Source of the DNA: a virus
Lineage: Duplodnaviria > Heunggongvirae > Uroviricota > Caudoviricetes
Length of the DNA stretch: 43,350 bases
Strand: one strand, 5' to 3'
Virus record (IMG/VR): IMGVR_UViG_2703718812_000010
The notes beneath the pieces were generated by a model. The model did no database searches and was not told where the DNA came from. It saw nothing but the letters and a program-made list of their open reading frames with translations. The first letter of the stretch is position 1, and each line of letters opens with the position of its first letter. Shown here one piece after another: positions 1-36,690 of the stretch. The translations under genes and the position numbers were made by a program.

Positions 1-142
1 AACAAACCTGAATCATGCCGCAATGAGCACGCTTCTTGGTGAGAGGATTATGGACCGCATGACCATGAACGGTGGTCGGTGGGTGACGTTTAACTGGGAT
101 AGCTGGCGTCCAAATGTCAGCAATCAGAGGGTTGTAAAGTAA
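1..142 (+). CDS. 3' end of an unidentified gene (partial, runs off window start)
   Basis: Open frame from window start to TAA at 140-142, read directly from sequence; no recognisable motif. Confidence 0.25.
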   Translation, partial: TNLNHAAMSTLLGERIMDRMTMNGGRWVTFNWDSWRPNVSNQRVVK

Positions 143-145
143 TTT

Positions 146-880
146 TTGTTGGAGGACGTTTTAATGGAAACTGTATTTGACGCACTGAAAGCACTGAAAA
201 AAGCCTCTTCACAGGTAGTGGCATCGCGCCTTGGAATCAGCCGCGAAGATGCTGTCAACGAACTGTGGAAACTGAAGCGCCGTGGTGAAGCGGATAACAA
301 GGGTTCGATGTGGTGGCTGATTCAGGCTGGTGAAAGTGAACCAGTGTCACCGGTACCGAAAGTGACAGCGCAAATGCTGACTGAGGCGATTGAACATCAT
401 GGCCCACAAACGGCGGATGAGCTGGCACTGATGTTCGGGATTACCTCCCGCCGGGCGAATTCATCACTGGCCATGGCAATCAGCAAAGGGCGTCTGATTC
501 GCGTGAATCAGGGCGGTAAATTTCGGTACTGCATACCGGGCGCTGATTTACCGGCAGAGCCGAAAGCCGCATCCATAGCGGAAACGGATGGTAAAGCCTT
601 TCCTCAGCCAGCAGGTGTTGCGTTACCAGTCGGGGAAGCGGAAACACAGGAAGAAATAAAAACGGAAAGTGTGGCGGTCACAGTGCAGTCACAGCCGTCG
701 TTCACCAGAAAGCATCCGGATGGTCTGATTTTACCATCGCTGCATGTGGCTAACCGCGAGCTGCGCCGGGCAAAAGGTCAGGTTCAGAAGTGGGAGCGAG
801 TCTGCGCCGCGCTGCGGGAGCTGAACAAGTGCCGGGATATTCTCCGGGATATTACCGCCACCAGAGAACAGCAGCGGTGA
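146..880 (+). CDS. hypothetical prophage protein, 244 aa
   Basis: Long ORF in ORF track; no motif recognised; start may be an internal Met. Context: cluster of small prophage-type genes. Confidence 0.45.
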
Positions 881-912
881 GTGGGTGGAAGACGTGGTGC
901 CGGGCGGAAATC

Positions 913-1194
913 ATGATACTCCGGCAGTGTGCGGGAACGAGGAAGGTAAAAAGCGTTGGCGCACTTATCGGACGAACTGAAGCGGCAGTGAGAACGAAGG
1001 CACGGGAGCTGGGCATCAGCATGATGTTACGTGGTGATTTTCACCCGTCGGCAAAATATTCTCAGCGTGATATTGAGCTGGCGCGGCAACTGCATCAGAG
1101 AGGCATGCAAAGAAGGGAAATTGCCAGAAAATTAGGCATGCCGCTGCGCATAGTGAATAACTACGTTTATTTCGACAGGAGGGTGTCTGCGTGA
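913..1194 (+). CDS. hypothetical HTH-repeat protein (start moved to internal ATG of ORF 790..1194)
   Basis: ORF 790..1194 overlaps the previous gene; internal ATG at 913 gives a 93 aa product with repeated motifs of the form (I/V)A/G..LG.S and RREIARKLGM resembling helix-turn-helix units. Confidence 0.35.
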   Translation: MILRQCAGTRKVKSVGALIGRTEAAVRTKARELGISMMLRGDFHPSAKYSQRDIELARQLHQRGMQRREIARKLGMPLRIVNNYVYFDRRVSA

Positions 1195-1418
1195 AAATCC
1201 TGTATCAGGATTACGGCCCGGTGGGGCAGGTGGTTATCAGCAGTACTGTAATGGAGTTTCGGAAGCATAACCGTGTGGTGGATGCTGTGCTGTTAACCTG
1301 TCCGGGGATATCGGCGAGTCGTGCAGGTGTGTTTATTATGAAGACTAAATTATATGGCAGTAAGGCGTGGATAAAGAAGGCGTATCGTGTAGCGTTGCAG
1401 GAGGTTAACAGTGAGTAA
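1191..1418 (+). CDS. hypothetical protein, 75 aa
   Basis: ORF overlapping stop of the upstream gene by 4 nt (translational coupling pattern). Confidence 0.35.
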   Translation: MKILYQDYGPVGQVVISSTVMEFRKHNRVVDAVLLTCPGISASRAGVFIMKTKLYGSKAWIKKAYRVALQEVNSE

Positions 1419-1722
1419 AATTAAAGAAATGCCGGTAGTTCGTGACGGATATGGCTACTGGACACATCCTGAATATGAAAAATTCTGTGATGGTCGGGAA
1501 TATATTTCAACGGAAGAGTTTAACGCCTGGATGGAGGAAAATAATCTTCAATACGTCCTCTGCTTCAGAGATGAAGGATGTGCTGACCTTGATGCGTGTG
1601 ATGCTGATATTTCTGCATGGGAACCGGAACGACCAGAGGGCGATGGCTGGTTTATTGGTTCCATTCATGATACGGAAGATGGCCCGGTTTGTGTCTGGTT
1701 GCGAAATAAGGCTGAAGCATAA
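1411..1722 (+). CDS. hypothetical prophage protein, 103 aa
   Basis: ORF in operon-like arrangement with flanking small genes; acidic, Cys-containing; no confident family assignment. Confidence 0.4.
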   Translation: MSKIKEMPVVRDGYGYWTHPEYEKFCDGREYISTEEFNAWMEENNLQYVLCFRDEGCADLDACDADISAWEPERPEGDGWFIGSIHDTEDGPVCVWLRNKAEA

Positions 1723-1849
1723 AGGCGATAAACCAACTAACAACTAAATACTGAAGATTTAAATCAGAAACGATTTTTATTAAATCCTTAACCGGAGGGA
1801 TTCCTGCACCCTCAGAACATCAGGAGGCCGCCCGAAAGGGCGGTAAGAA

Positions 1850-2068
1850 ATGAAACATTATTTAGAAAAAAATTACCCACGAAAGAGCAGAACAACAGAG
1901 TTTCTGTTTTTCATTCTGTTTATAGTGTTGATGATACCGATATCCCCGCTATTACTGGTCTGGATAATTGGAAGGACATTTGAACCAGTTATTGAGCTAT
2001 ATACCGATGTGACATGGGAATCATTCAGCGCACTGCACAATAAAATTAATCCGTATAAGGAAAACTGA
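1850..2068 (+). CDS. small membrane protein, 72 aa
   Basis: Hydrophobic stretch FLFFILFIVLMIPISPLLLVWIIG predicted as a TM helix; preceded by AGGAGG and a GNRA-loop hairpin. Confidence 0.4.
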   Translation: MKHYLEKNYPRKSRTTEFLFFILFIVLMIPISPLLLVWIIGRTFEPVIELYTDVTWESFSALHNKINPYKEN

Positions 2069-2069
2069 T

Positions 2070-2627
2070 ATGAGCACTATTACCAGAGAACGCGCGGAGA
2101 TTAAATCATACATCACAGGCTTCCTGAGCGACTCGGCGCACGATAACAAGTCTTCAGACAGCCTGCTGGCTAATGTGTTTCGTATCGCGCTGGCATCACT
2201 GGAAGCAGAGCCGATAGCAATGGTAGTGCCTGATGAAATGGATTTGCTTACCTGCCATCTCGACGGTGTAACTAAAACATATGCTGATGGCTGGAACGCC
2301 TGCCGCGTCGCCATGCTTCAGGCCGGAAACTTTCGGGAAAATAAGAATTCGTCAACCAACAATTTTCGGGAAATCTCGGAAACGTCAACCAGATCTCCGA
2401 TAACTCTGGATGGCTGGATAAGCTGTACTGAGCGAATGCCTGAAAAGAGCCAGAACGTGCTTATTTCGATGAATATCGATAGCGAGGCTGGGCCATTAAT
2501 ATATTCCGCACGCTATCTCGGAGGCACGTTCCGGCGCGGAGGTATAGCAGTTAGTCCGGGTAATGATCTTAGGCAAGCAACCCACTGGATGTCGCTACCA
2601 GAACCGCCGCAGGAGGTGAATCAATGA
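2070..2627 (+). CDS. hypothetical prophage protein, 185 aa (C-terminal WISCTERMPE region reminiscent of DUF551-type prophage proteins)
   Basis: ORF starts 1 nt after the previous stop; family resemblance is from memory only and was not searched. Confidence 0.45.
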   Translation: MSTITRERAEIKSYITGFLSDSAHDNKSSDSLLANVFRIALASLEAEPIAMVVPDEMDLLTCHLDGVTKTYADGWNACRVAMLQAGNFRENKNSSTNNFREISETSTRSPITLDGWISCTERMPEKSQNVLISMNIDSEAGPLIYSARYLGGTFRRGGIAVSPGNDLRQATHWMSLPEPPQEVNQ

Positions 2628-2917
2628 CCTGGCCTGAAGCATTCACAACGGTAGGAATTGCGATGGCGGTGGCGCTGGTGGTGTATTCGATTTGCCGCTG
2701 GGGATAAAAACGGTTTGCGGGAAAAGGATAGTTAAGTAGAATTGCAGCGGGTGCTTGAGGCTATCTGCCTCGGGCATGAACACCAACGGCAGATAGAGAA
2801 AAGCCCCAGTTAACATTACGCGTCCTGCAAGACGCTTAACATTAATCTGAGGCTCAATCCATGCTGAACACATGTAGGTTAGCCTCTTACGTGCCGAAAG
2901 GCAAGGAGAAGCAGGCT

Positions 2918-3073
2918 ATGAAGCAGCAAAAGGCGATGTTAATCGCCCTGATCGTCATCTGTTTAACCGTCATAGTGACGGCACTGGTAACGAGGAAAGA
3001 CCTCTGCGAGGTGCGAATCCGAACCGGTCAGACGGAGGTCGCTGTCTTCGTAGACTACGAATCTGAGAAGTAA
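2918..3073 (+). CDS. hokD: Hok/Gef family type I toxin (HokD/RelF-like), 51 aa
   Basis: Translation MKQQKAMLIALIVICLTVIVTALVTRKDLCEVRIRTGQTEVAVFVDYESEK has the Hok architecture: one TM helix followed by the conserved RK.LCE.R....EVA.F..YE periplasmic tail. AGGAGA sits 8 nt upstream of the ATG at 2918. The ORF-track start at 2861 is an in-frame upstream extension. Confidence 0.75.
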   Translation: MKQQKAMLIALIVICLTVIVTALVTRKDLCEVRIRTGQTEVAVFVDYESEK

Positions 3074-3080
3074 GAGACCA

Positions 3081-3103
3081 GGCGGGGGAGTAATCTCCCG
3101 CCA
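3081..3103 (+). other. 3' stem-loop of the hok transcript (GGCGGGGGA / TCTCCCGCC)
   Basis: Imperfect 8-9 bp inverted repeat immediately after the hok stop; no T-tract follows, so more likely an mRNA-stabilising end structure than an intrinsic terminator. Confidence 0.35.
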
Positions 3104-3192
3104 CCTCTGATGTGTCAGGCATCCTCAACGCACCCGCGCTTTACCATACTGAAAATGCTGTTTGAATGTTCATCTCTGAAAGAGGACTATGA

Positions 3193-3537
3193 ATGAAAAA
3201 GGTATTGATTGCAGCACTTATTTCCGGTGTGTCTTTTGGCGCTTTTGCACAGCAGGGTGGTTTCCAGGGGCCAGAAGCAGAGCGTTCAACAGTAGCGCAG
3301 GCAAAAGAACTGAAGGATGATGCATGGGTTATCCTTGAAGGGAGCATCGTTAAAAAAGTGGGTGATGAACGTTATGAGTTTCGTGACAATAGCGGGACAA
3401 TTGTCACGGATATTGATGACAGCGTATGGGCCGGGCAGAATGTTTCTCCGAAAGACAAAGTAAGAATTGAGGGTGAAATTGATAAAGACCTGAGCAGTGT
3501 TGAAGTTGATGTAAAGGCACTGAAATTATTAAAGTAA
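3193..3537 (+). CDS. YgiW/YdeI-family periplasmic OB-fold (BOF) protein, 114 aa
   Basis: N-terminal signal peptide MKKVLIAALISGVSFGAFA; remaining sequence resembles the BOF stress-protein family. Confidence 0.65.
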   Translation: MKKVLIAALISGVSFGAFAQQGGFQGPEAERSTVAQAKELKDDAWVILEGSIVKKVGDERYEFRDNSGTIVTDIDDSVWAGQNVSPKDKVRIEGEIDKDLSSVEVDVKALKLLK

Positions 3538-3546
3538 CCGCCCCTG

Positions 3547-3573
3547 CTTGTTAAGCCCGTCTTACTGACGGGT
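3547..3573 (+). terminator. intrinsic terminator after the YgiW-like gene
   Basis: Stem CCCGTC (3547-3552) / GACGGG (3558-3563) followed by TTTTCTGTTT. Confidence 0.55.
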
Positions 3574-3658
3574 TTTCTGTTTGTACATTCCGGCGTATTG
3601 CCTTACAATTCGCGCAGTCAGCCTGAACAACTGACACCTGCTGTCACCGGAGAATCCG

Positions 3659-3862
3659 ATGACACAACACATAAAATCCCACAATTCTGAAGCCGACCCG
3701 GAAATTAAGCAGGGGAGGCGTTTTCGTGCGCCTCAGTATGGCTGGTTTCACTATCTGTTCTGTACGATCGATGAGGCAGATATGTGTAACCAGGTGAATC
3801 ATTTGATACCGACAAGGGTTTTAGTGAAAGGAGGTGAAATCACCTGTAAGATGCTGAAATAA
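3659..3862 (+). CDS. hypothetical protein, 67 aa; ends 10 bp before the prophage left terminus
   Basis: ORF only; could be an intact small gene or the remnant of a gene disrupted by the insertion. Confidence 0.3.
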   Translation: MTQHIKSHNSEADPEIKQGRRFRAPQYGWFHYLFCTIDEADMCNQVNHLIPTRVLVKGGEITCKMLK

Positions 3863-3871
3863 AACAGGTGA

Positions 3872-3975
3872 TGTATACTTCGGACGGAAAACTCTTTTTG
3901 ATACCGACTGCTCAACAAATAGTCAAAAGATCAAAAAACGGCGACACATTTGATACTGCTAATTTACCCTTAAAA
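3872..3975 (+). repeat. left end (attL-like) with putative transposase-binding repeats
   Basis: TGTATACTTCGGACGGAAAACTCTTTTTGATACCGA..., with further TTTGATAC-type copies downstream; an inverted counterpart is found at the right end. Confidence 0.5.
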
Positions 3976-4140
3976 TCTTCTTCAAAACATCTTCAAACTG
4001 CCAAAATGCTCACATAATCGATCTAACTATAATCAGTATGATAATCATCATGAATTACTATTCAATAGCGTGATTATCTTGGGATGAGTCATATGATCTC
4101 TATATGTATTTACAGCACCACCTCATGATAGCGATGGCGC

Positions 4141-4752
4141 TTAACCAACAACATTTTTCTTTACTGTCACTGCCCCTGATTCCTGGGTGGCGTTATTGCT
4201 CGAGTTGTACTTCTCAATAACGCGCAAAATCTCTTTGTCTGTTTCTTCACTTCCCGCCATTCCTATCTTTATTGCATTTTTTAGTACGGGACGTAATGGC
4301 AAGGCATCAATGATGCTTTCTACCGCATCCTGGCTGATTGTAGATGTATTCATTGCTGCCAGCCTGACAAGGTTGTTAGTACCTTCTCGCCTGATGAATG
4401 TAAGGATTAATTGCTTCTCTTGGGGGCTTAGAGAGCTAAGCGCCTGATCAATACCCGAACCTGAATCGCAATTGTTTTCGATTTTTCCGCATTCATCTTC
4501 GTTCTTGCCTGTGGCCAACCATTCGAGTGAACAATTACAGGCTTTAGCTATTAAGGCCAGTTTATCCAAAGGAGGGAAGTTTTTCCCCTTCCTGTAATTT
4601 CTTACTGTGGCTTCAGATAGTCCACAAAGGGTCGCCAGTTCGACGTTTGTCATGTTTCCCATAGCCATAGCTAAGCGTTCTGAAAATCGGTTTATTCCTT
4701 CCATATCAATAAACCGTTCCGCACTGGATACGGTTTTTTCTGCCTTATCCAT
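4141..4752 (-). CDS. prophage repressor, XRE-family HTH (c-gene position)
   Basis: Leftward gene divergent from ner-A-B; HTH_XRE-like segment MTNVELATLCGLSEATVRNYRKGKNFPPLDKLALIAKACNCSLEWL; 3' end about 270 bp from the left terminus, as for Mu c. Confidence 0.7.
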   Translation of the reverse strand: MDKAEKTVSSAERFIDMEGINRFSERLAMAMGNMTNVELATLCGLSEATVRNYRKGKNFPPLDKLALIAKACNCSLEWLATGKNEDECGKIENNCDSGSGIDQALSSLSPQEKQLILTFIRREGTNNLVRLAAMNTSTISQDAVESIIDALPLRPVLKNAIKIGMAGSEETDKEILRVIEKYNSSNNATQESGAVTVKKNVVG

Positions 4753-4908
4753 ATAACCCCCTATAAAACAAAGAAATTATCAACATCGCATTTAATTTCG
4801 ATGTGCTCGCAAAAAACCGTTGATATCGAATTATTTTGCGATTATGATTTACCTAAATCGATAACCGGTTTTGATTATCGGTTCAGGTAAACATGAGAGG
4901 ATCACACA
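4753..4908. promoter_or_regulatory. divergent immunity control region: early promoter plus dyad operators
   Basis: Rightward sigma70-like promoter, -35 TTGATA (4820-4825) and -10 TATGAT (4844-4849) with an 18 bp spacer; two ATCG-N10-CGAT dyads (4785-4802, 4825-4842), the second inside the promoter spacer; a third dyad CGATAA-N10-TTATCG (4859-4880). Confidence 0.5.
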
Positions 4909-5175
4909 ATGAGGGTATCCAGACAAGCATCGAATAATTTGTTTGTTCGAGAGGGGTGTGACTGGTCTGCTAAAGCGGTATATGCAGCCCTTGAAAACAA
5001 AGGCACAGACCTCCCTGAACTGGAAAGGGAGTTAGGATTAAAAAGCGGATCAATGCGCAATGTGTTTTACCGCCAGTGCCGTAAATACGAAGCCGCCATC
5101 GCCGAAAAAATAGGGGTTGAACCTGCTGTAATCTGGCCCAGCAGATACCAGGTGGACGCCAGAGAAGTGGCTTGA
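4909..5175 (+). CDS. ner: Ner-like DNA-binding early regulator
   Basis: 88 aa ORF directly upstream of the transposase, matching Mu ner in position, size and Ner/Nlp-like sequence. Confidence 0.7.
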   Translation: MRVSRQASNNLFVREGCDWSAKAVYAALENKGTDLPELERELGLKSGSMRNVFYRQCRKYEAAIAEKIGVEPAVIWPSRYQVDAREVA

Positions 5176-5185
5176 TGGGGGATGT

Positions 5186-7276
5186 ATGTGGGTAACAGCA
5201 AAAGAATGTGTTGGTCTTCCTGATTTACCAATGATGGAACATAACATTCGCCATCGACTCACAAAAGCAGCTGCGGGAAATGCAGCCATGTTACGCAAAC
5301 GTAAGGGGACAAAAGCAATCGAATTTAATATCGATTGTTTGCCTTCTGGCGCGCAACAAGTATTGCGTGAACGTTATGCCCTTCAACTGATGACGCAAAA
5401 AGCTGATGAATCACCGGCTCCGGTGGTGACAAAGGCCAGACGCTCGCCTGCCGTGGTTGATGCGGTGGAGGCATATCGCGGATCACCACAACTGATGGTT
5501 GAACGCCTTAATGCCCTGACTGAAAACCAGCGCCAGGTGGCTGATGCACGAATCGCGATCGTCAGCGAAGTGATGAAAGTCGCGCAACAACCCGGTTTCA
5601 GCTGTGCGAAAGCTATCCGGTTTATCGTTGACAACCTGGCACGTTCGCAACTGGACGAGCGCATTGTGGCAATGGTTGAGACGGCGAACGCCAAAAAGGG
5701 AAACAGCCGTGCGTTGAGTGAAATAACGCTGAAACGCTGGATTGCGGCCTTTAACAAGGCGCAGAACGCCGCTGAACGCCTGCTTTTACTGGCACCGGGT
5801 AAGCGCCAGGAAATAAAAGCCGAAGATATTAACTGGCTGCCCGAATTTCTGGCGCAGTATCGCCAGTCAAACGGCCGACCAATGACCGAGGCTTACGAGG
5901 ATTTTGTCGCTGAATGGCAGCACCGGCACGCTGATGAGCCTTATATGCTCGATATCATGCCGTCTTATGACACCATTCGCCGCGCAATGAAGAAACTGCC
6001 GGAAGTGGTGAAACAAAAAGGCCGGGTGACCGGCAGTGAATACCGCCAGCTTGAGGGATTCACGCGCCGCGACTGGTCCAGAATGCCGGTGAATTATGTC
6101 TGGATTGGTGACGGTCACGGCATGAAGCTGAAATGCGCACACCCGGTTCACGGTCGGCCATTTGCACCGGAAGTGACCTTTGTTATCGACGGTGGCACGC
6201 GCTTTGTGGTGGGCTGGAGCCTTGACCTGGCTGAAAATGTTTTCGCCGTAGCCGGTGCCATACAGCACGGCATTCGCCATCACGGCAAACCGTTTCTGTA
6301 TTACTCGGATAACGGCTCCGGGGAAACCGCCGACATCCTGGATAAGGAGGTTGTGGGGATACTGCCGCGACTGGGGATTAATCACCCGACCGGGATTGCC
6401 GGTAATCCGCAGGGACGAGGCATTATCGAACGGCTTAACCGCACATTACCGATGCGCATAGCCCGTAAATACCGCACCTATTTCGGGAAAGGTGCAGATC
6501 GCGAGACGTTACGCAAAACCAACCGCGATTTACGCTCGGCATTTACTGCCCTGCAACAGGGCAAACGGCTGAACGCCCGGCAGCAGTCAGCGATGCGTGA
6601 TTTACCGTCCTGGTCTGAACTGATTGATGCCATTCGTGACGGTGTTGAGTGGTACAACAACCGGCCGCACGATGAATTACCGGTGAAGCCGAACGGCAAG
6701 CATTACAGCCCGGCGGAGTTCAGAAAAAAACGCCTGGCGGAAGAGGACACGGAAATTGAATGGCTGTCCGATGTTGAGCTGCGGGATATGTTCCGGCCGA
6801 TGGTGGAACGCCCTGTAAGACGCTGTGAAATACGCTGGCTGAATAATATTTACTACGCGCCCGAGCTGCGTGACGAGCATGGTCGTAAGGTGCTTATCAG
6901 CTATGACATTCATGATGCCGAACGAATTACCGTACGTCGCCTGGATGGCAGCGTGATTTGCGAGGCGGTATGGGACGGTAATAAACGCGAAGCCTTCCCG
7001 GTTAGCGCGGAATACTACAAACAGCAGCAACGCCTTAAAGGCATGCGTAAACGCGCAGAGGAAAAAATCCGTGATGCCGAGGATGAGGTTGTCAACGTGC
7101 TGGAGCACAAGCCGCAGGAGCCCTGGCTGGAAAACATATACCGCCCTGTGGGTAATACGGTGACCGTTCAGCAACCGGTCGCTGACGATGAACCTGATGA
7201 AGAATACGAGCGTAATTTCCAGCGGGGATTGCAGTTGCTGGAAGCGAAATTAAAAGAAAATGACCCGCTGGCCTGA
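5186..7276 (+). CDS. Mu-type DDE transposase (MuA-like), 696 aa
   Basis: N-terminal end-binding-like domain; candidate catalytic triad in WIGDGH / YSDNGS / GIIERLN blocks; size and position match MuA. Confidence 0.9.
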   Translation: MWVTAKECVGLPDLPMMEHNIRHRLTKAAAGNAAMLRKRKGTKAIEFNIDCLPSGAQQVLRERYALQLMTQKADESPAPVVTKARRSPAVVDAVEAYRGSPQLMVERLNALTENQRQVADARIAIVSEVMKVAQQPGFSCAKAIRFIVDNLARSQLDERIVAMVETANAKKGNSRALSEITLKRWIAAFNKAQNAAERLLLLAPGKRQEIKAEDINWLPEFLAQYRQSNGRPMTEAYEDFVAEWQHRHADEPYMLDIMPSYDTIRRAMKKLPEVVKQKGRVTGSEYRQLEGFTRRDWSRMPVNYVWIGDGHGMKLKCAHPVHGRPFAPEVTFVIDGGTRFVVGWSLDLAENVFAVAGAIQHGIRHHGKPFLYYSDNGSGETADILDKEVVGILPRLGINHPTGIAGNPQGRGIIERLNRTLPMRIARKYRTYFGKGADRETLRKTNRDLRSAFTALQQGKRLNARQQSAMRDLPSWSELIDAIRDGVEWYNNRPHDELPVKPNGKHYSPAEFRKKRLAEEDTEIEWLSDVELRDMFRPMVERPVRRCEIRWLNNIYYAPELRDEHGRKVLISYDIHDAERITVRRLDGSVICEAVWDGNKREAFPVSAEYYKQQQRLKGMRKRAEEKIRDAEDEVVNVLEHKPQEPWLENIYRPVGNTVTVQQPVADDEPDEEYERNFQRGLQLLEAKLKENDPLA

Positions 7277-7347
7277 AATAAAAAAATAACCCGAGCGGCG
7301 ACTCAGGTTATTTGATTAAACAAGGTATCAAATGAGAGGTTAATAAT

Positions 7348-8280
7348 ATGACTGATATTAACGATGTAATCAAGACCATTGATGAACTTATTGATGGCGG
7401 CGTACTGACGCAGTATGCCATCGCCAGAGAGGCGGGAATTTCCGACGGCACATTATCGGCTTTCCGTAAGGGAAAATATAAAGGCGATAACGCTGCTGTG
7501 GCTGCTTCCCTGCGTTCCTGGTATGAGAACTGGAATAAACAAAGCGCACTGCCGGAACCGCCGCAGTTTGTGGAAACGCAGACAGTCCAGGAGCTGCGCG
7601 CACTGTTTCAGGCGGTTCGTCTGATGGGCTGTATTAACGTTATTGTGGGCGTACCGGGTGTGGGTAAAACGGCCACTGCCCGTAATTACTGCCAGGAGCA
7701 ACCAAACACCTGGATGATCACCCTGTCACCCGCGCACTCCAGCGTCACGGAGTGTCTGCTGGAGCTGGCCGATGCGCTGGGGATTGATTACACCCGCGCG
7801 AACAAAGGGGCATTATCCCGCGCCATCCGCCGTCGCCTGATGGGAACGCGTGGACTGGTTATTGTGGATGAGGCGGATCATCTTGGTATTGACGGTCTGG
7901 AGCAACTCCGGGCAATTCAGGACGCCACGGGGATCGGGATGGTGCTTATTGGTAACCCGCGCGGATTGTTTAAAGGTGGACGCCGCACCTTTGATGATTT
8001 ATCGCGCCTGTTCAGCCGTCTTGCCCGTACAAAACAACTTCGCAAGGCCAAAAAGGCGGATGTGCTGGCCATTGCCAGGGCGTGGGGGATCAGTGGTGAG
8101 GCCGAGCTGGCCGTCATGCAGGCTATCGCTGAAAAGCCGGGAGCGTTACGCGTTCTGACACATACGCTTAACCAGGCGTGGCTCACCGCCAGCGGTGAAG
8201 GCGCGGCGCTGACAGAAAAACATATTAATGCGGCCTTTAAAGAGGTTTATACCAACCCTGAATTACTCTCACAGGTGTGA
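7348..8280 (+). CDS. MuB-like AAA+ ATPase, transposition target-DNA activator
   Basis: Walker A GVPGVGKT and Walker B LVIVDEADHL; 310 aa; immediately downstream of the transposase. Confidence 0.9.
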   Translation: MTDINDVIKTIDELIDGGVLTQYAIAREAGISDGTLSAFRKGKYKGDNAAVAASLRSWYENWNKQSALPEPPQFVETQTVQELRALFQAVRLMGCINVIVGVPGVGKTATARNYCQEQPNTWMITLSPAHSSVTECLLELADALGIDYTRANKGALSRAIRRRLMGTRGLVIVDEADHLGIDGLEQLRAIQDATGIGMVLIGNPRGLFKGGRRTFDDLSRLFSRLARTKQLRKAKKADVLAIARAWGISGEAELAVMQAIAEKPGALRVLTHTLNQAWLTASGEGAALTEKHINAAFKEVYTNPELLSQV

Positions 8281-8504
8281 TTATGGCGGTATTTAATATT
8301 CCTGATATTTACGGACGCTTTTACCTGGTTAATTTCGATAACGTGAAGGTGATTTCACTGGCCGAAAATAAAGAATGTGGCGATTTACTTTTTGAATTTA
8401 ATGACCGCACACGAATGGTGATATCTGCCGGACTTGATCGAGAAGGTGCGACAGACGTTTACAGCGGAATATGCCGTTCTGTTGGTGCGAAACAAGTCAG
8501 CTAA
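8277..8504 (+). CDS. hypothetical early protein, 75 aa
   Basis: Start overlaps the B stop; first gene of the accessory early operon. Confidence 0.45.
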   Translation: MIMAVFNIPDIYGRFYLVNFDNVKVISLAENKECGDLLFEFNDRTRMVISAGLDREGATDVYSGICRSVGAKQVS

Positions 8505-8771
8505 ATGAGGTGTTATATGAATATGCAATCCTGCGGTAACAAAATGAATTTATTCGACTCCCTGAACAGCGCGCGCCGTCTGACCGAACTTGCCGGTGCG
8601 GTACTGGAACGCAGTAAGCGCTATCCGCAACGTTTTGCACTGAAAACCACGCCGCCGGTAGGCAACGTGCAGGGAACCGGTGAAATTGAAATCACCATAC
8701 AGACCAACGGCCTGCGCCGCCGTGTGAAGGCCACCCGCATCAGCGGCTGCACGGTTTACTGGGAGGTGTGA
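8505..8771 (+). CDS. hypothetical early protein, 88 aa or shorter
   Basis: Tightly packed ORF; several possible in-frame starts. Confidence 0.4.
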   Translation: MRCYMNMQSCGNKMNLFDSLNSARRLTELAGAVLERSKRYPQRFALKTTPPVGNVQGTGEIEITIQTNGLRRRVKATRISGCTVYWEV

Positions 8772-8772
8772 G

Positions 8773-9054
8773 GTGAAAAAAAATCTCATTGCATGGGCGT
8801 GGTCGAGTGGTCTTATTGAGTTTGGTTACGTCCTGCCGGAAGGTGCATTGCCGATAGTTGCCGGAAAGCCTGCCACGGTACGGCATGTGATTGAGGTTAT
8901 GGCGCGTCATGGACGTGATGAACAGGAGCAGTTACTGGTTCCGGGGATACCGGAAGCGGTGACGGAGGAAGAAGCCTTTAATGCCATGATTCGGTTCTGC
9001 CGTGAGGTCAGACGCCGGGTCAGTTATCCAAACAGAACGAGGACCAGAGGATGA
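8773..9054 (+). CDS. hypothetical early protein, 93 aa
   Basis: ORF 2 nt after the previous stop. Confidence 0.45.
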   Translation: MKKNLIAWAWSSGLIEFGYVLPEGALPIVAGKPATVRHVIEVMARHGRDEQEQLLVPGIPEAVTEEEAFNAMIRFCREVRRRVSYPNRTRTRG

Positions 9055-9323
9055 GTAAAGTCGTACGCATTATTTTCGAATACAAGGAGCACGTTATCCA
9101 TAAAAACGCTGATGGAACAGTGCGCATGGGGGTAAGTCTGGACATACGTTCAACCGGGATAAAGCAGAAGGGTGATGGACCCGCCATGATTTTTGGGGTG
9201 GTTATGCTCGCGGAAAGCAGAGACTTTGCTGAACTTGTGGCAATGAAAGCCAGTGCGCTCATGAAAGATATGAGCATGCGTTCCGGGGTTATTAAAGGTA
9301 ATGAATTTAATCAGCAGGGGTAA
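9051..9323 (+). CDS. hypothetical early protein, 90 aa (paralog A)
   Basis: Begins MSKVVRIIFEYKEH; the next gene begins MSKVRVIFEFKH, indicating a tandem duplication. Confidence 0.5.
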   Translation: MSKVVRIIFEYKEHVIHKNADGTVRMGVSLDIRSTGIKQKGDGPAMIFGVVMLAESRDFAELVAMKASALMKDMSMRSGVIKGNEFNQQG

Positions 9324-9327
9324 TTCC

Positions 9328-9621
9328 ATGAGCAAAGTACGCGTTATTTTTGAATTTAAGCATGTTTCGCATGACGAAAAACCGGCAGGCAATGACTGTG
9401 TTGAAGTGCATGAAAAGATTGGTGTGGATGTAAAAACAGAACGTGATACGAATAACAGGCCGACGTCACTCTGTGACGTTTATGCAAGTATTCTCCAGTA
9501 TCACAGTCCTGAAATTATTCAGTTTCTCTCAGCGGAATTTCAGGCATCTGTACAGGCTTTTGGGGCGGATGCCATCATTAAACGCCACCGCGTGCATAAA
9601 GCATCAGGCACACTGCAATAA
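9328..9621 (+). CDS. hypothetical early protein, 97 aa (paralog B)
   Basis: Internal ATG of ORF 9301..9621 with a GGGG-rich ribosome-binding region upstream; N-terminus parallels the previous gene. Confidence 0.5.
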   Translation: MSKVRVIFEFKHVSHDEKPAGNDCVEVHEKIGVDVKTERDTNNRPTSLCDVYASILQYHSPEIIQFLSAEFQASVQAFGADAIIKRHRVHKASGTLQ

Positions 9622-18739: not shown

Positions 18740-20328
18740 TGGGACGTATAATTGATCTTGACGGAAAACCTTTCTCCTTTGACCCGGAGATGCAGAGCGC
18801 CGCGCTGGATATTCCGCAGATTGCCAGCCGTTATATTGAACATCCGGCCTCGGGTATCACCCCGAACCGGGCGGCACAGTGCCTTCGCGGGGCTGAACGT
18901 GGCGATCTGATTGCCCAGTCCGATCTGGCCGCTGACATTGAAGAAAAGGATACCCACCTTTTTGCAGAGCTGGGCAAGCGACGCCTTGCCATTCAGGGGG
19001 TGCCCTGGAGTATTGAGCCGCCACCGAACGCCAGCGCGAATGAGAAAAAGGACGCGGAAATGCTCGACGAATATCTGCATTCCGCCGACTGGTTTGATGC
19101 CATGCTGTTTGATGCCACCGATGCCATCCTGAAAGGCTATTCCTGCATGGAGATTGAGCACGGGATGCTCGGTAAAATGCACATCATCCGCGCCATCCGC
19201 TGGCGTGACAGCGGGCATTTCTGCCTTAACCCGGATGATTTGAGCGAACTGCGGCTGCGTGACGGCAGCCATGCCGGGGTGGCGTTTCAGCCCTTTGGCT
19301 GGATAGTGCATCAGTCACGTTCACGCACCGGTTACGGCGGCGCAACAGGGCTTGTCAGAACGCTTATCTGGCCGTTCATTTTCAAAAACTATTCCGTGCG
19401 CGATCTGGCTGAATTTCTGGAGGTGTACGGCCTGCCGATGAAGGTCGGTAAATACCCGTCCGGGGCAACGCCGGAGCAGAAAAGCGCCCTGATGCGGGCG
19501 GTGATGGATATCGGGCGACGTACAGGCGGGATCATCCCGGCCGGGATGTCTCTGGAGTTTCAGGCAGCCGCGAACGGTCAGGCCGATCCGTTTGAAACCA
19601 TGATTTCGTGGGGGGAGCGTTCCATCTCCAAAGCAATACTCGGCGGCACGCTGACCACGGAAGCCGGAGACAAAGGCGCGCGCTCGCTGGGTGAAGTGCA
19701 TAACGAGGTGCGCCGGGAAATCAGGGATTCTGATTTACGCCAGCTGGCCGCCACGCTGAACCGCGATCTGGTGTATCCGCTGTATGCCCTGAACACCGCC
19801 CACGCCATTGATATCCGTCGCCTGCCGCGTATCTGTTTCCAGACAAAAGAGCCGGGGGATATCACCAAAATCACCAGTGCGGTGATGCAGCTCAGTACGG
19901 GGATGGATATTCCTGATCCCTGGGTACGGGACCAGACCGGTATTCCACAGCCTGCCCCCGGTGAAGCCATCTTCCGTGTTCGTCAGAGTGGCAATGAACC
20001 TGCTCAGACAGACAAAGAGATGCCACCGGAAAAACAGGAAAAGACAGAGCAGACGGCGCTGTCAGCCCGACTGCCGGAAGCGAAAAGCAGCCCCCGTGAT
20101 GAACTGGACGATATGGGGGATGCGGTGCCTGCCCGCCGGTTACAGGACGCTATCGACCTGCTGCTGGAGCCGGTCATTGATGCCATCAGAACGCGGGGGC
20201 TGGCGGATGCGCTGGCAGACCTGCCTGCCCTTTACCGTGAAATGGATGATTCCCGCCTGATGACGCTGCTCAGTGATGCCATGTTTGCTGCGGAAATGAA
20301 GGGGATGCTGGATGGCACAGGGGATTGA
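18730..20328 (+). CDS. portal protein (Mu gp29-like)
   Basis: 532 aa ORF between terminase and F; acidic C-terminus. Confidence 0.8.
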   Translation: MLVVGRIIDLDGKPFSFDPEMQSAALDIPQIASRYIEHPASGITPNRAAQCLRGAERGDLIAQSDLAADIEEKDTHLFAELGKRRLAIQGVPWSIEPPPNASANEKKDAEMLDEYLHSADWFDAMLFDATDAILKGYSCMEIEHGMLGKMHIIRAIRWRDSGHFCLNPDDLSELRLRDGSHAGVAFQPFGWIVHQSRSRTGYGGATGLVRTLIWPFIFKNYSVRDLAEFLEVYGLPMKVGKYPSGATPEQKSALMRAVMDIGRRTGGIIPAGMSLEFQAAANGQADPFETMISWGERSISKAILGGTLTTEAGDKGARSLGEVHNEVRREIRDSDLRQLAATLNRDLVYPLYALNTAHAIDIRRLPRICFQTKEPGDITKITSAVMQLSTGMDIPDPWVRDQTGIPQPAPGEAIFRVRQSGNEPAQTDKEMPPEKQEKTEQTALSARLPEAKSSPRDELDDMGDAVPARRLQDAIDLLLEPVIDAIRTRGLADALADLPALYREMDDSRLMTLLSDAMFAAEMKGMLDGTGD

Positions 20329-21643
20329 TTTAGGTTATGCCGCCACCCTTCCCTCAAAAGAGGCGGTGGCATACTTCCGCGCCAAAGGGGCGCATATCAG
20401 CTGGAACTGGTTCGAAACAGACGCGGATGTTCATGCCCGTTCATTCACGGCGGCAAGAGTGGCACGCCTGGACGTACTGACCACACTACAGGCGGAAGTG
20501 CAGCGTGCTGTTGATGAGGGGATTTCACAGAAAGCATTTATCCGCACACTGACGCCCCGCCTGCAAAAGCTGGGATGGTGGGGAAAACAGATTGTGGTGG
20601 ACAGTGCCGGTAACGCGGAAGAAGTGCAGCTGGGCAGTCCCCGCCGTCTGGCGCTGATTTACAACATGAACACCCGTGTGGCTTACAATGCCGGGCGTTA
20701 CACGCAGATGATGAACAACACGGACACGCATCCGTTCTGGCAGTATGTGGCGGTGATGGACAGCCGCACCCGCCCGGCGCATTCCGCTCTTAACGGTCTG
20801 GTATTCCGCTATGACGATCCGTTCTGGAATACACACTACCCACCCAATGGCTGGAACTGTCGCTGCCGTGTCCGGCCATTGTCTCAGGCCCGTCTGGATG
20901 CAATGGGGTTATCCGTTTCATCCGGTCAGGATCATCTCTCCACCCGCAATGTTGAGGCTGGCGTGGATAAGCAGACCGGGGAAGTCAGAGAAATGCCGGT
21001 GACCACATATTCAGATGGCACCAGAACCATGACACCGGATGTGGGCTGGTCATATAACCCCGGTTCGGCGGCGTTCGGCACAGACCAGGCGCTGATCCGT
21101 AAACTGATCGAGGTGAAAAGCCCGGCGTTACGGGAAATGGTGGTTCAGGAGATGAACAACAGCCCGGAGCGGCAGCTGGCGTTCCGCATCTGGGCAAAAA
21201 ACATCATGAAAACCCGGCGAGGCGGTAACGATATCCGCACGCTGGGCTTTATGACCGAAAGCATTGCGCAGGCGGTGGAAAGCCGGACGGGAACGCCACC
21301 GGCCCGCCTGCTGGCGATGAGCGGTAAAAATGTGCTCCATGCGGACAGCATGAAACATCAGAATGACGGTATCGCCCTGACACCGGAGGATTTCGGGCGC
21401 TTACCGGCAATGCTGGCAAGGCCAAAAGCGGTACTGTGGGACAAACGGCACAACAATCTGATGTATATCGTGGAAAATCAGGATGGCAGTGTGCAGATTG
21501 CCGTTAATGCACCGTACAGCCTGAAGCGTCAGCCGGATAAACTGGATGTGATTGTTAATGCTTACCGGGTTATCAATATGGATAAGCTGAAATCGGATAT
21601 CCGGGGCGGAATGCTTGAGGTACTGGAAGGAGATATTGATTAA
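20312..21643 (+). CDS. head morphogenesis protein (Mu F-like)
   Basis: 443 aa ORF after the portal; conserved F-family region RTRPAHSALNGLVF...WNCRCR. Confidence 0.75.
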   Translation: MAQGIDLGYAATLPSKEAVAYFRAKGAHISWNWFETDADVHARSFTAARVARLDVLTTLQAEVQRAVDEGISQKAFIRTLTPRLQKLGWWGKQIVVDSAGNAEEVQLGSPRRLALIYNMNTRVAYNAGRYTQMMNNTDTHPFWQYVAVMDSRTRPAHSALNGLVFRYDDPFWNTHYPPNGWNCRCRVRPLSQARLDAMGLSVSSGQDHLSTRNVEAGVDKQTGEVREMPVTTYSDGTRTMTPDVGWSYNPGSAAFGTDQALIRKLIEVKSPALREMVVQEMNNSPERQLAFRIWAKNIMKTRRGGNDIRTLGFMTESIAQAVESRTGTPPARLLAMSGKNVLHADSMKHQNDGIALTPEDFGRLPAMLARPKAVLWDKRHNNLMYIVENQDGSVQIAVNAPYSLKRQPDKLDVIVNAYRVINMDKLKSDIRGGMLEVLEGDID

Positions 21644-21645
21644 CG

Positions 21646-21724
21646 GTCAGTGGCGGGGGTCGAACCCGCATACATGATCCACCCGGAGGCAGGCACCGAC
21701 TTTACCAGTTAAGCGTACACTGAC
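21646..21724 (-). other. tRNA-like structured element (probable tRNA remnant)
   Basis: On the minus strand: 7 bp acceptor-like stem (GTCAGTG / CACTGAC), D-arm-like hairpin with GG loop, T-arm GCGGG-TTCGACC-CCCGC abutting the 3' acceptor strand, total 79 nt; no anticodon stem could be formed and there is no CCA. Confidence 0.25.
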
Positions 21725-21764
21725 CGCCTGCTTATTTTATATTCATATTTTATACGGAGGCAAT

Positions 21765-22238
21765 ATGTCATCCATTGATGCCGCCGTCGTTGTTGACGTT
21801 ACGCGTCTCCAGCGGGTCTTTGCCCGGCTTCAGTTTGTGGGTGGCGGAAAAGACCTGGCCCGCAGTGTGGCGTCCAGCCTTCTGTCATCGTCAGAAATGG
21901 CGTTTGAACAGGAAAAAGAGCCGGACGGCGAACGCTGGCATGACTGGTCAGATCCTTACCGCAAGTGGCGTACCCGTAAGGGATACATGCCCGGCAAAAT
22001 CCTGACGCTGAACGGCGATCTGGCCCGACGCCTGACCACGGATTATGGCGACACCTGGGCGCTGATTGGATCAAATGAGCCTTATGCGGCCATTCATCAG
22101 TGGGGTGGCCTGCCAGGTATGCCGCCGGGACCGGCGGCCATTGGTGCACGTCCGTATATGGGCTTTGATCAGGTGGCAGAGCAGGAGATCATGGACGAAA
22201 TCAGAAAACGCTTTAAAAAGGCCACAGAAACGCCTTAA
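21765..22238 (+). CDS. virion morphogenesis protein (Mu G-like)
   Basis: 157 aa ORF between F and I; Mu G-like sequence (LTLNGDLARRL...IHQWGG). Confidence 0.7.
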   Translation: MSSIDAAVVVDVTRLQRVFARLQFVGGGKDLARSVASSLLSSSEMAFEQEKEPDGERWHDWSDPYRKWRTRKGYMPGKILTLNGDLARRLTTDYGDTWALIGSNEPYAAIHQWGGLPGMPPGPAAIGARPYMGFDQVAEQEIMDEIRKRFKKATETP

Positions 22239-35779: not shown

Positions 35780-36690
35780 TGTTTCATGTTGATAATAATT
35801 CCGGCGTGGCGAATATGCCTGCGCTGGCACCGGCGCAGAGTAATACCACCACCTGGTTTACCGAAGGTGACGGACAAAAAGGTATCAGCTGGATTGGTCA
35901 GGACTGGCTGAATATTCTCCAGGCCGAACTGCTGAATATTCTGGCTGAAGCCAGTATTCAGCCGGATAAGGCGCAGTTAAACCAGCTTACGCTGTCCATT
36001 AAAGCCATTATCGCTGCGAATGCCTTTTCCCGGAAAAACAACCTGAAAGAAATTGCTGATGCCGGTGCGGAAGCCCAGCGTCTTGCCCGTGGTTATCTTG
36101 GTCTTGGGGCGCTTGCCACAAAAAACAGTCTTGGTCCCGGTGACGTTAATGCTCTGGCGAAGGATCAGAACCTTGCCGACCTGGAGAATGCGGGAACCGC
36201 CCGTAATAATCTGGATGTTTACAGCAAAAGCGAAGGTGATAACCGTTACCTGCGCAGGGAGCAGAACGGCGCAGACATTCCGGATAAAGGCGCTTTTATC
36301 GATAACGTCGGTTTACGGGAAACGGTAAATAAGGCTGCTGATGCCCTGCCATCGGGTGGAACCGCCGTGGCAGCAAACAGACTCGCCACCCCAAGAAATA
36401 TTAATGGCGTTCCTTTTGACGGAACGCAGGATATCAACATCACGTCAGGAATGACGCAGTCAACCGCAGATGGCCGGTATGTACAGAATGTTCAGCTTGG
36501 AGCACAGAGCTATCATTCACCCGGAGGCAATGAAATATCATGGAATTACAGCGCACCTTCCGGTTGTATGCTTTCCGGTATTAACGTGCAGGAAACCGGC
36601 TCCCGGTCTGCGGACAATATCGGTGGGGTCTATTATCGCCCGGTTCAGATTTATATTAATAATGCCTGGAGAACGGTAAGTTCAGTGTAA
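35779..36690 (+). CDS. tail fibre protein S (constant part plus currently joined variable C-terminus)
   Basis: 303 aa; the gene is crossed by a Gin recombination site at 36297-36322; the C-terminal region is homologous to a promoterless inverted segment at 37326-37682. Confidence 0.75.
   Translation: MFHVDNNSGVANMPALAPAQSNTTTWFTEGDGQKGISWIGQDWLNILQAELLNILAEASIQPDKAQLNQLTLSIKAIIAANAFSRKNNLKEIADAGAEAQRLARGYLGLGALATKNSLGPGDVNALAKDQNLADLENAGTARNNLDVYSKSEGDNRYLRREQNGADIPDKGAFIDNVGLRETVNKAADALPSGGTAVAANRLATPRNINGVPFDGTQDINITSGMTQSTADGRYVQNVQLGAQSYHSPGGNEISWNYSAPSGCMLSGINVQETGSRSADNIGGVYYRPVQIYINNAWRTVSSV
36297..36322 (+). repeat. gixL-like recombination site
   Basis: TTATCGATAACGTCGGTTTACGGGAA, a 26 bp match to the Gin/Hin crossover-site pattern (two 12 bp half-sites around a 2 bp core), in inverted orientation relative to 37671-37696. 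Confidence 0.6.

Follow-up and report, generated by a model that had tools for sequence, protein, structure and literature searches.

What fills the spacer between genes F and G of a Mu-like prophage, given that in phage Mu itself, as in a relative (L060), the two genes overlap, with no spacer and no element of the kind described here? The question is raised by IMG/VR virus record IMGVR_UViG_2703718812_000010, a 43,350-nucleotide (nt) stretch of DNA that is referred to throughout as the window. The window is a Mu-like prophage with its left end at about 3785, and its F and G genes are separated by 121 bp (Table 1). A preliminary description, made from the sequence alone, placed a transfer RNA (tRNA)-like structure on the minus strand of this spacer; that much has been borne out by the Rfam tRNA model, by a family model (R1), by the RefSeq Prokaryotic Genome Annotation Pipeline (PGAP) and by covariation. 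Comparison of related loci indicates that the spacer carries a conserved gene for a non-decoding, tRNA-shaped RNA that is genetically coupled to the ribonuclease (RNase)-fold domain of the virion protein F.

The element is 84 nt long and is the sole match of R1 within the window. Its match to the Rfam tRNA family (RF00005; 21645-21724, minus strand) scored 31.0 bits against a gathering threshold of 29 (E=1.1e-4, 401-nt search); the covariance-model check proposed with the preliminary description thus came out above threshold, and the match would be borderline if taken alone. PGAP, through tRNAscan-SE, labels the same 80 nt 'tRNA-OTHER' in many complete Escherichia coli genomes, and does so at the identical sequence in L001. 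The RNA begins and ends with a closing stem of 9 bp, in which CGGTCAGTG (21726-21718) pairs with CACTGACCG (21652-21644), or CGGUCAGUG with CACUGACCG as RNA, followed by a single nucleotide at the 3' end. The acceptor-type stem that was seen at first is real, but its length of 7 bp was underestimated, as pairs -1:73 and -2:74 extend it and covary in relatives. The D-arm-like hairpin and the T arm, with its TTCGA-containing 7-nt loop at the 3' acceptor strand, are reproduced by the Rfam alignment; one additional C (21715) lies between position 9 and the D stem. The statement that no anticodon stem can be drawn holds in part: a stem can be drawn (CUGCC-UCCG-GGUGG, 21692-21679), but it is not an anticodon stem-loop. 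This hairpin consists of 5 bp, two of them G·U, under a UNCG tetraloop (UCCG), with no 7-nt loop and no anticodon, and the arm as a whole amounts to 8 bp, interrupted. No CCA is encoded after the closing stem (the 3' flank is C-GTTAA); sequence and folds agree with the earlier account on this point and on the lack of a usable anticodon arm.

Two aminoacylation identities were considered and rejected. The histidyl-tRNA synthetase identity pair G-1:C73 is a pair in the window, but is replaced by G·U, A:U or U:A in relatives, and the next outward pair also covaries; the alanine identity pair G3·U70 is absent. Separately, the tRNA match was not listed in an Rfam run of the whole 43-kb window at the gathering threshold, and filter-dependent misses of that kind could conceal such elements in routine scans.

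Versions of the element that have diverged to ~75% identity sit at the corresponding junction of other Mu-like prophages in E. coli, and further members come from IMG/VR, metagenomes, Citrobacter braakii, Edwardsiella anguillarum, an Oceanospirillum metagenome-assembled genome and a TARA ocean contig. When one genome per species was scanned with exact patterns, a first pattern gave nothing and a looser one only Edwardsiella and Citrobacter; retrieval by synteny, using the F C-terminus, yielded far more. In a set of 19 sequences collected by hand, pairing in the acceptor, D and T stems reached 94.2%, with double-sided changes in 11 of 18 pairs. When 27 distinct homologues were aligned to R1, 94.6% of the cells were paired and 14 of the 18 pairs showed double-sided changes; none of 500 shuffles reached as high a value, and slid controls were 35-54% paired. 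The comparison of the F-G spacer among related Mu-like phages, which had been suggested as a further check, thus finds the stems conserved and covarying. Covariation extends to pairs -1:73 and -2:74 (C:G to A:U; G:C to A:U to U:A). The T stem is 99.3% paired with three covarying pairs, and its compensatory variants include GCAGG/CCUGC, GUGGG/CCCAC and GCGGG/CCCGU. In alignment A2, the GTAC.CT.AA..GGTA.AG core of the D-arm region is invariant, as are GGTA of the D loop and GGTTCG of the T arm, and U8, A14 and G18-G19 are kept. R1 scores of the homologues lie between 96 and 23 bits, and GC contents of the element between 0.48 and 0.71. G·U pairs in the stems number 21 on the tRNA-sense strand versus one on the complementary, messenger RNA (mRNA) strand, so the selected molecule is the minus-strand RNA, antisense to the late operon. 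The comparative evidence for a structured minus-strand RNA is decisive.

Both ends at which a tRNA functions are closed in this family. The 24 distinct arms found between the D and T arms are rods of 7-12 bp, capped by tetraloops in 15 cases (UUCG in five, then UCCG, GCAA, UUAA, CUAA, UCAA, UCAG, GUAC, UAAC and AAAU) and by triloops in two; relatives found later are also capped by tetraloops, GUAA in L184 and CUAG in L180. A 7-nt loop of the anticodon type is missing from 23 of the 24 family arms, and loops of 5-7 nt occur in two members, L070 and, outside the F context, L075, the only one with a full 7 nt. The arm is the hypervariable part of the family, in length as well as in sequence (alignments A1, A2 and A6). 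Judged as a tRNA, the RNA has no anticodon arm with a 5-bp stem and a 7-nt loop (U33, purine 37) and no 7-bp acceptor with an unpaired discriminator and an encoded 3' CCA, the stem running through -1:73 and -2:74, while the residues of tRNA tertiary structure (G18-G19, T54-Psi55-C56, A58 and the 5-bp T stem) are all in place. The closed anticodon arm is a conserved trait and not a product of erosion, and the RNA retains the tRNA elbow and coaxial stack with neither an anticodon nor a free acceptor end.

The relative L075 (4967-5044, minus strand, IMG/VR contig 3300014312_000012) is GC-rich, has a 7-nt loop, GUCACAA, with anticodon CAC, and adjoins no F gene; its promoter, TTGACA-16-TAAGAT, is near consensus. 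It may resemble a decoding ancestor of the family.

The RNA gene is probably transcribed independently; it is preceded by a sigma-70-type promoter-like site with a predicted start at about 21727-21729, 1-3 nt ahead of the first base of the 9-bp stem (21726). The -35 hexamer of this site, TTGCCT, is the complement of the G ribosome-binding region, so that the two signals overlap on opposite strands. The same architecture recurs in at least 17 lineages, GC-rich hosts included, despite differing spacer sequence: nearly all have a -35 element, a 17-18-nt spacer and a -10 element ending 6-9 nt before the stem. No terminator adjoining the RNA gene was found and no processing site was identified. On the strand of the RNA gene and ~290 nt downstream of it, inside the F coding region, a weak hairpin followed by a T-run (21357-21333, minus strand) could end a longer antisense transcript.

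The tie between the RNA and the C-terminal RNase-fold domain of F, which the preliminary description missed, is the feature that best constrains the function of the RNA. The C-terminal domain of F matches Pfam MuF_C (PF18819) at residues 347-429, and a distance of 1 nt separates the F stop codon from the 3' end of the RNA closing stem; in every F-linked case, the RNA gene abuts the F stop codon. According to Iyer et al. (2017, PMC5512222), MuF_C belongs to the PBECR class (phage Barnase-EndoU-ColicinE5/D-RelE (BECR) fold), the copy of Mu is catalytically inactive with a predicted RNA-binding role, and its orthologues are probably active RNases that are packaged and injected. In colicin-like BECR RNases, the active-site histidine is located in a pre-alpha element and follows a semi-conserved lysine (bioRxiv 10.64898/2026.08.28.747851). 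Residues K348 and H349 of F match this arrangement and are a candidate Lys-His pair of the active site. They form the end of a motif, [LMV]x-H-[AI]-[DN]-S-x-[KR]-H (H-x-D-S-x-K-H for short), that is present in all RNA-bearing loci and was lost through deletion or substitution in RNA-less ones. Mu and L060, whose genes leave no spacer, do not have the motif. Of 48 distinct F C-termini, motif and RNA are both present in 20 and both absent in 26, and two are exceptions, namely, L099, with an interrupted F, and L143, with a frameshifted F and a degenerate RNA of 10 bits. Three more distant loci (L180, L182 and L184) also have both. At least five state changes are needed on a neighbour-joining tree, one of them within the sister pair L113 (both) and L132 (neither). 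Phages with the RNA invariably have residues H343, D345, S346, K348, H349, N382, N399, N416 and Y418, which are all but missing from the others. Among complete E. coli genomes, the F C-terminal block was detected in 231 and the RNA in 226. The structure prediction for F used an alignment of 22 sequences only, as the homologue search gave mostly short partial proteins.

Two of these loci have further peculiarities. In L099 (~1515-1671), an F of the window type is broken after '...VIVNAY' by unrelated sequence and the RNA gene is gone; the cause is either an insertion or rearrangement or a join in the assembly. L182 contains Rfam CRISPR-DR4 repeat matches of up to 39.7 bits (994-1021, 1054-1081 and 4163-4190) that flank a fragmented Mu-like F-G region carrying the tRNA-like RNA, and these may represent a mini-array or isolated repeats within a Mu-like element.

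The end of F and the RNA gene also move together. Compared with KY203-type and 2015C-4944-type phages, the window is 60-72% identical across ~21400-21760 and 93-100% identical on both sides. B-type and C-type phages differ from each other in two divergent patches only, the last ~25 F codons (57%) and the variable arm of the RNA (50%). Among pairs of 47 loci that carry different RNA arms, the same F tail is shared by four, where the arms differ by 1 nt, versus 94 pairs that have upstream F sequence in common and 16 that have the G N-terminus in common; one G N-terminus was found with A, B and C RNAs. Because sharing of the F tail is rare and sharing of upstream F and of G is frequent, the minimal co-inherited unit would be the F tail plus the RNA. 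The pattern is suggestive of co-inheritance, and physical adjacency contributes to it.

Members of the family are also found without F, in integrative islands of ~8 kb located at ileX and beside dinD. The islands encode, in this order, an integrase, a helix-turn-helix regulator, Icd-like genes, a RepA helicase or toprim plus DUF927, SSB, PerC, and an activator of the Mor family that is 47% identical to Mor of the Mu-like phage, and end with two tandem family RNAs on the same strand, co-directional after mor, with no F gene and no F-G junction nearby. In the pair, one RNA is of the B/C type and its companion, annotated 'tRNA-Tyr', of the A type. The pair is carried by 14 of 5,426 genomes. The islands look like satellites associated with Mu-like phages, and their RNA pair resembles, by analogy, an array of orphan immunity genes. 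No published description of these islands was found, and they may be a lead on new satellites of Mu-like phages. Between mor and the RNA pair, L004 (2770-2880, minus strand) contains GTGAAA-containing direct repeats (…gtgaaagaaggtgaaagaaggtga…gtgaaattaagcgaaatcacgtgaaatcaggtgaaataa), which could be iterons or activator-binding sites.

In Mu and SPP1, F is a minor head protein that is ejected with the DNA. We propose, tentatively and with not quite half of our belief, that the RNA is a non-cleavable tRNA mimic and a dedicated partner, most likely a neutraliser, of the RNase-fold domain at the F C-terminus. Under this proposal, an independent gene, inserted in the F-G spacer in the manner of a moron, would specify an RNA of ~85 nt with the tRNA L-shape (acceptor/T-arm stack, D arm and elbow) and with both functional ends closed. 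A sigma-70-type promoter of its own would drive the RNA, both in the lysogen and from the incoming genome, convergently with late transcription. As the dedicated partner of the BECR-fold (colicin D/RelE-like) domain, it would occupy and neutralise that domain as an RNA immunity factor, or antidote, such that the virion-producing cell and lysogens would be protected and the activity of injected F would be limited in time, once the incoming genome is expressed. In this scheme, we infer the transcription of the RNA, the RNase activity of the F C-terminal domain and its substrate, the binding of the RNA to that domain, and inhibition through binding. No open reading frame of 33 or more amino acids that might encode a protein immunity factor is hidden in the divergent block besides F and G. 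A more specific version appears possible but rather unlikely: the sealed, tRNA-shaped RNA would be an immunity RNA against a colicin-D-like tRNase, with the A, B and C types cognate to F-tail subtypes, and satellites would stockpile orphans against Mu-like phages or to exploit them. If true, the virion would have an RNA-based toxin-immunity system built into it.

Several considerations weigh against neutralisation. The functional claims rest wholly on comparative genomics, and the association between motif and RNA represents roughly 5-8 independent evolutionary events. The two are adjacent, so that coupling and cassette behaviour could in part be linkage alone, and hypervariability of the arm and of the F tail could in each case reflect no more than weak constraint. 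Competition with ~10^5 cellular tRNAs would require an RNA of much higher affinity. One locus, L183, has a motif (VAHTGSAKH) and only a weak RNA match of 8.5 bits. Finally, the same data fit the RNA as cargo, cofactor or substrate of the F C-terminal domain.

That last possibility, in which the RNA partners the F domain without inhibiting it, as cargo or cofactor packaged and injected as a ribonucleoprotein or as a substrate matured by the domain, is in our estimate of low probability. In type III toxin-antitoxin systems, the partner RNA is processed by the very RNase toxin that it accompanies. Co-occurrence and cassette swapping apply to this reading as much as to neutralisation, and an RNA-binding role has been predicted for the inactive MuF_C of Mu (Iyer et al., PMC5512222). 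The loss of the RNA exactly together with the catalytic-looking residues argues otherwise, since pure binding or cargo would not obviously need a Lys-His site, and RNAs carried by satellite islands that lack F fit protection better than cargo. The lack of an identified terminator or processing site likewise counts against this reading.

It is also fairly improbable that the RNA acts independently of F, as a trans-acting tRNA decoy against a host or rival factor that recognises tRNA shape, such as a defence nuclease, RNase P or a toxin modifying the CCA end. The conserved L-shape and elbow residues combined with two blocked ends are what a decoy would have, and the constitutive-looking promoter of its own, as in morons, and the presence in satellite islands are both compatible with it; phage tRNAs are documented to counter tRNA-cleaving defences, in reports on PARIS (PMC11455837) and on Septu acting on tRNA-Tyr (PMC13096335). 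A decoy leaves unexplained, however, why the RNA occurs only with motif-bearing MuF_C, always abutting the F stop codon, and why the F tail varies jointly with the RNA arm.

The element might instead regulate late expression in cis or as an antisense RNA, affecting G translation or mRNA cleavage through convergent transcription or pairing. The overlap between its -35 element and the G ribosome-binding site, the full complementarity of the RNA to the spacer in late mRNA, and the fact that G has its own Shine-Dalgarno sequence here, versus the F/G overlap in Mu, make the idea reasonable, but we consider it very unlikely. Such regulation would not be expected to select for U8, A14, G18-G19, the TTCGA T loop or compensatory changes involving G·U on one strand; the satellite copies are co-directional after mor with no F-G junction nearby; and the family is conserved whereas the flanking sequence is not. 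The suggestion in the preliminary description of a structured RNA affecting late transcripts is correct as to the structured RNA; an effect on late transcripts is weakly supported at best, as the selected strand is antisense to late mRNA, and the conserved residues are specific to tRNA, not to terminators or attenuators.

A decaying tRNA pseudogene, or the scar of recombination at a tRNA site, as that description also suggested, can hardly account for the locus. The missing anticodon loop and CCA are what decay would leave, ARAGORN, which requires a proper anticodon arm, reported no tRNA in the window or in four relatives, and fold stability was not significant on either strand (z = -1.1 to -1.5). 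Decay would not yield compensatory change in 14 of 18 pairs from Enterobacteriaceae to marine and GC-rich hosts, retained D- and T-loop residues, a conserved promoter-like site and closed arms with tetraloop caps that recur in independent lineages, and the spread of R1 scores and GC contents given above is not that of recent copies of one sequence. A functional decoding tRNA with an unusual anticodon loop, as implied by the labels 'tRNA-OTHER' in RefSeq and 'tRNA-Tyr' in the satellites, by the above-threshold Rfam score, by the tRNAscan-SE call in PGAP and by the 5-7-nt loops of L070 and L075, is of negligible probability, because a 4-nt loop on a stem of at least 8 bp cannot present an anticodon and the 9-bp closed acceptor, with -1:73 and -2:74 covarying, leaves no single-stranded NCCA end and is followed by no encoded CCA.

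With canonical and phage-encoded tRNA genes (RF00005; for example, the T4 and T5 clusters), the element shares the acceptor, D and T arms of the cloverleaf, U8, A14, G18-G19, the TTCGA T loop, the 5-bp T stem and the 4-bp D stem. Unlike them, it has no 7-nt anticodon loop, an arm of 7-12 bp in its place, a terminal stem of 9 bp, no CCA and an extra nucleotide before the D stem. Non-decoding tRNA mimics include the tRNA-like domain of transfer-messenger RNA (tmRNA), YrlA (a bacterial Y RNA), mascRNA, viral tRNA-like structures and 'tRNA-Other' of Bacillus cereus. As in these RNAs, the elbow and the acceptor/T stack are kept, as for tRNA-binding factors, with no decoding role. No Rfam family other than tRNA matched the element at threshold, and distant family members gave sub-threshold matches to the tmRNA and tRNA-Sec models. 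The element differs from these mimics in being a free-standing gene of ~85 nt that ends at a closed acceptor stem, whereas YrlA has a permuted structure and the tmRNA domain belongs to a larger, alanine-charged RNA. To our knowledge, none of these mimics is paired with an RNase-fold domain of a virion protein.

Colicins D and E5 are BECR tRNases whose immunity proteins, ImmD and ImmE5, are encoded just downstream. As in toxin-immunity cassettes, a cognate gene lies immediately downstream of F, co-occurs with its domain and co-diversifies with it; the partner, being an RNA, is outside the usual definition. Here, unlike in the colicin systems, the downstream gene encodes an RNA, on the opposite strand and with its own promoter, and tRNase activity of the F domain is predicted only. 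In type III toxin-antitoxin systems (ToxIN, CptIN and TenpIN), an RNA binds and neutralises an endoribonuclease in phage-host conflict, which is the principle proposed here. Their antitoxins are tandem repeats located upstream of the toxin on the same strand, are processed by the toxin and form pseudoknots, whereas the RNA in the window is single-copy, tRNA-shaped and transcribed from its own promoter downstream of F on the opposite strand; the only tandem copies in the family are those of the satellite islands, which have no toxin gene. The element resembles phage morons in being an extra unit between conserved structural genes that is absent from Mu and L060 and has its own promoter-like site, and differs from them in that it specifies a structured RNA, no terminator of its own was found, and its occurrence goes with a feature of the structural gene beside it. 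F itself matches the MuF polymorphic toxins and polyvalent proteins (Jamet et al. 2017, PMC5576092; Iyer et al. 2017, PMC5512222), which combine an N-terminal Phage_Mu_F domain with a variable C-terminal effector (PBECR/MuF_C) in a late-gene context and are predicted to be packaged and injected; in the literature consulted, their loci have protein immunity genes or none, and no mention of a tRNA-like RNA partner was found there.

The existence of the locus is not new, as automated annotation already flags it as 'tRNA-OTHER'; literature searches turned up no account of the family, of its design without an anticodon or of its link to MuF_C. Colicin immunity proteins mimic tRNA, and a sealed tRNA mimic controlling a protein RNase would, if true, be their mirror image. 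Should the coupling prove functional, it would account for hundreds of 'tRNA-OTHER' annotations in prophages of pathogenic E. coli, and the long-obscure C-terminal domain of Mu-type F, so far only a predicted RNase (Iyer et al. 2017, PMC5512222), would gain a candidate partner. Whatever the mechanism, the R1 model and the H-x-D-S-x-K-H motif provide a simple rule for locating such modules, and even with the mechanism wrong, there is a well-supported new family of non-decoding tRNA-shaped RNAs.

Table 1. Coordinates of the features of the F-G region of the window and of the satellite islands.
Feature	Sequence	Coordinates	Strand	Basis or description
F	window	20312-21643	+	Phage_Mu_F domain and MuF_C domain
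Motif LHADSMKH, L342-H349	window	21335..21358	+	Motif tracking RNA presence
MuF_C (PBECR/BECR-fold) C-terminal domain coding region	window	21350..21643	+	F residues 347-443
Mosaic cassette: last ~80 F codons, RNA gene and promoter	window	21400..21760		Identity profiles
Anticodon-less tRNA-shaped RNA gene	window	21643..21726	-	R1 92.6 bits, Rfam tRNA 31.0 bits, PGAP 'tRNA-OTHER', covariation
T arm	window	21653..21669	-	GCGGG / UUCGACC / CCCGC; 7-nt loop with TTCGA; abuts 3' acceptor strand
Anticodon-arm replacement	window	21670..21698	-	Basal stem and hairpin CUGCC-UCCG-GGUGG (21692-21679)
D arm	window	21699..21714	-	Stem GCUU/AAGU (G10·U25), loop AACUGGUA (DNA AACTGGTA); Rfam alignment
Sigma-70-type promoter-like site	window	21734..21763	-	-35 TTGCCT 21763-21758, 18-nt spacer, -10 TAAAAT 21739-21734; consensus scan
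G ribosome-binding site GGAGG (21756-21760) and ATG (21765-21767)	window	21756..21767	+	Sequence, open reading frame list
G	window	21765-22238	+	Phage_tail_S protein
Island at tRNA-Ile ileX	L065, E. coli JNEC-KY179	1505-9394		
Island beside dinD	L066, strain 2012EL-2448	1-9217		

As to antisense targets elsewhere in the phage, the best match was a 12-mer of the variable hairpin (TGCCTCCGGGTG) complementary to positions 36518-36529 of the plus strand, in the tail-fibre region; ~0.4 such matches are expected by chance, and this one was taken as such. DNA near-identical to the window is frequent in Shiga toxin (Stx)-producing E. coli, including Mu-like insertions within Stx phages. Positions 1-3784 of the window are lambdoid prophage DNA, such that the Mu-like phage lies inside another prophage, and the identical arrangement is seen in the Stx-phage records LC727881 and LC727895. 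The left flank also contains a strong Rfam match to the sok antitoxin RNA (2749-2923, 113.5 bits), which points to a hok/sok-type locus.

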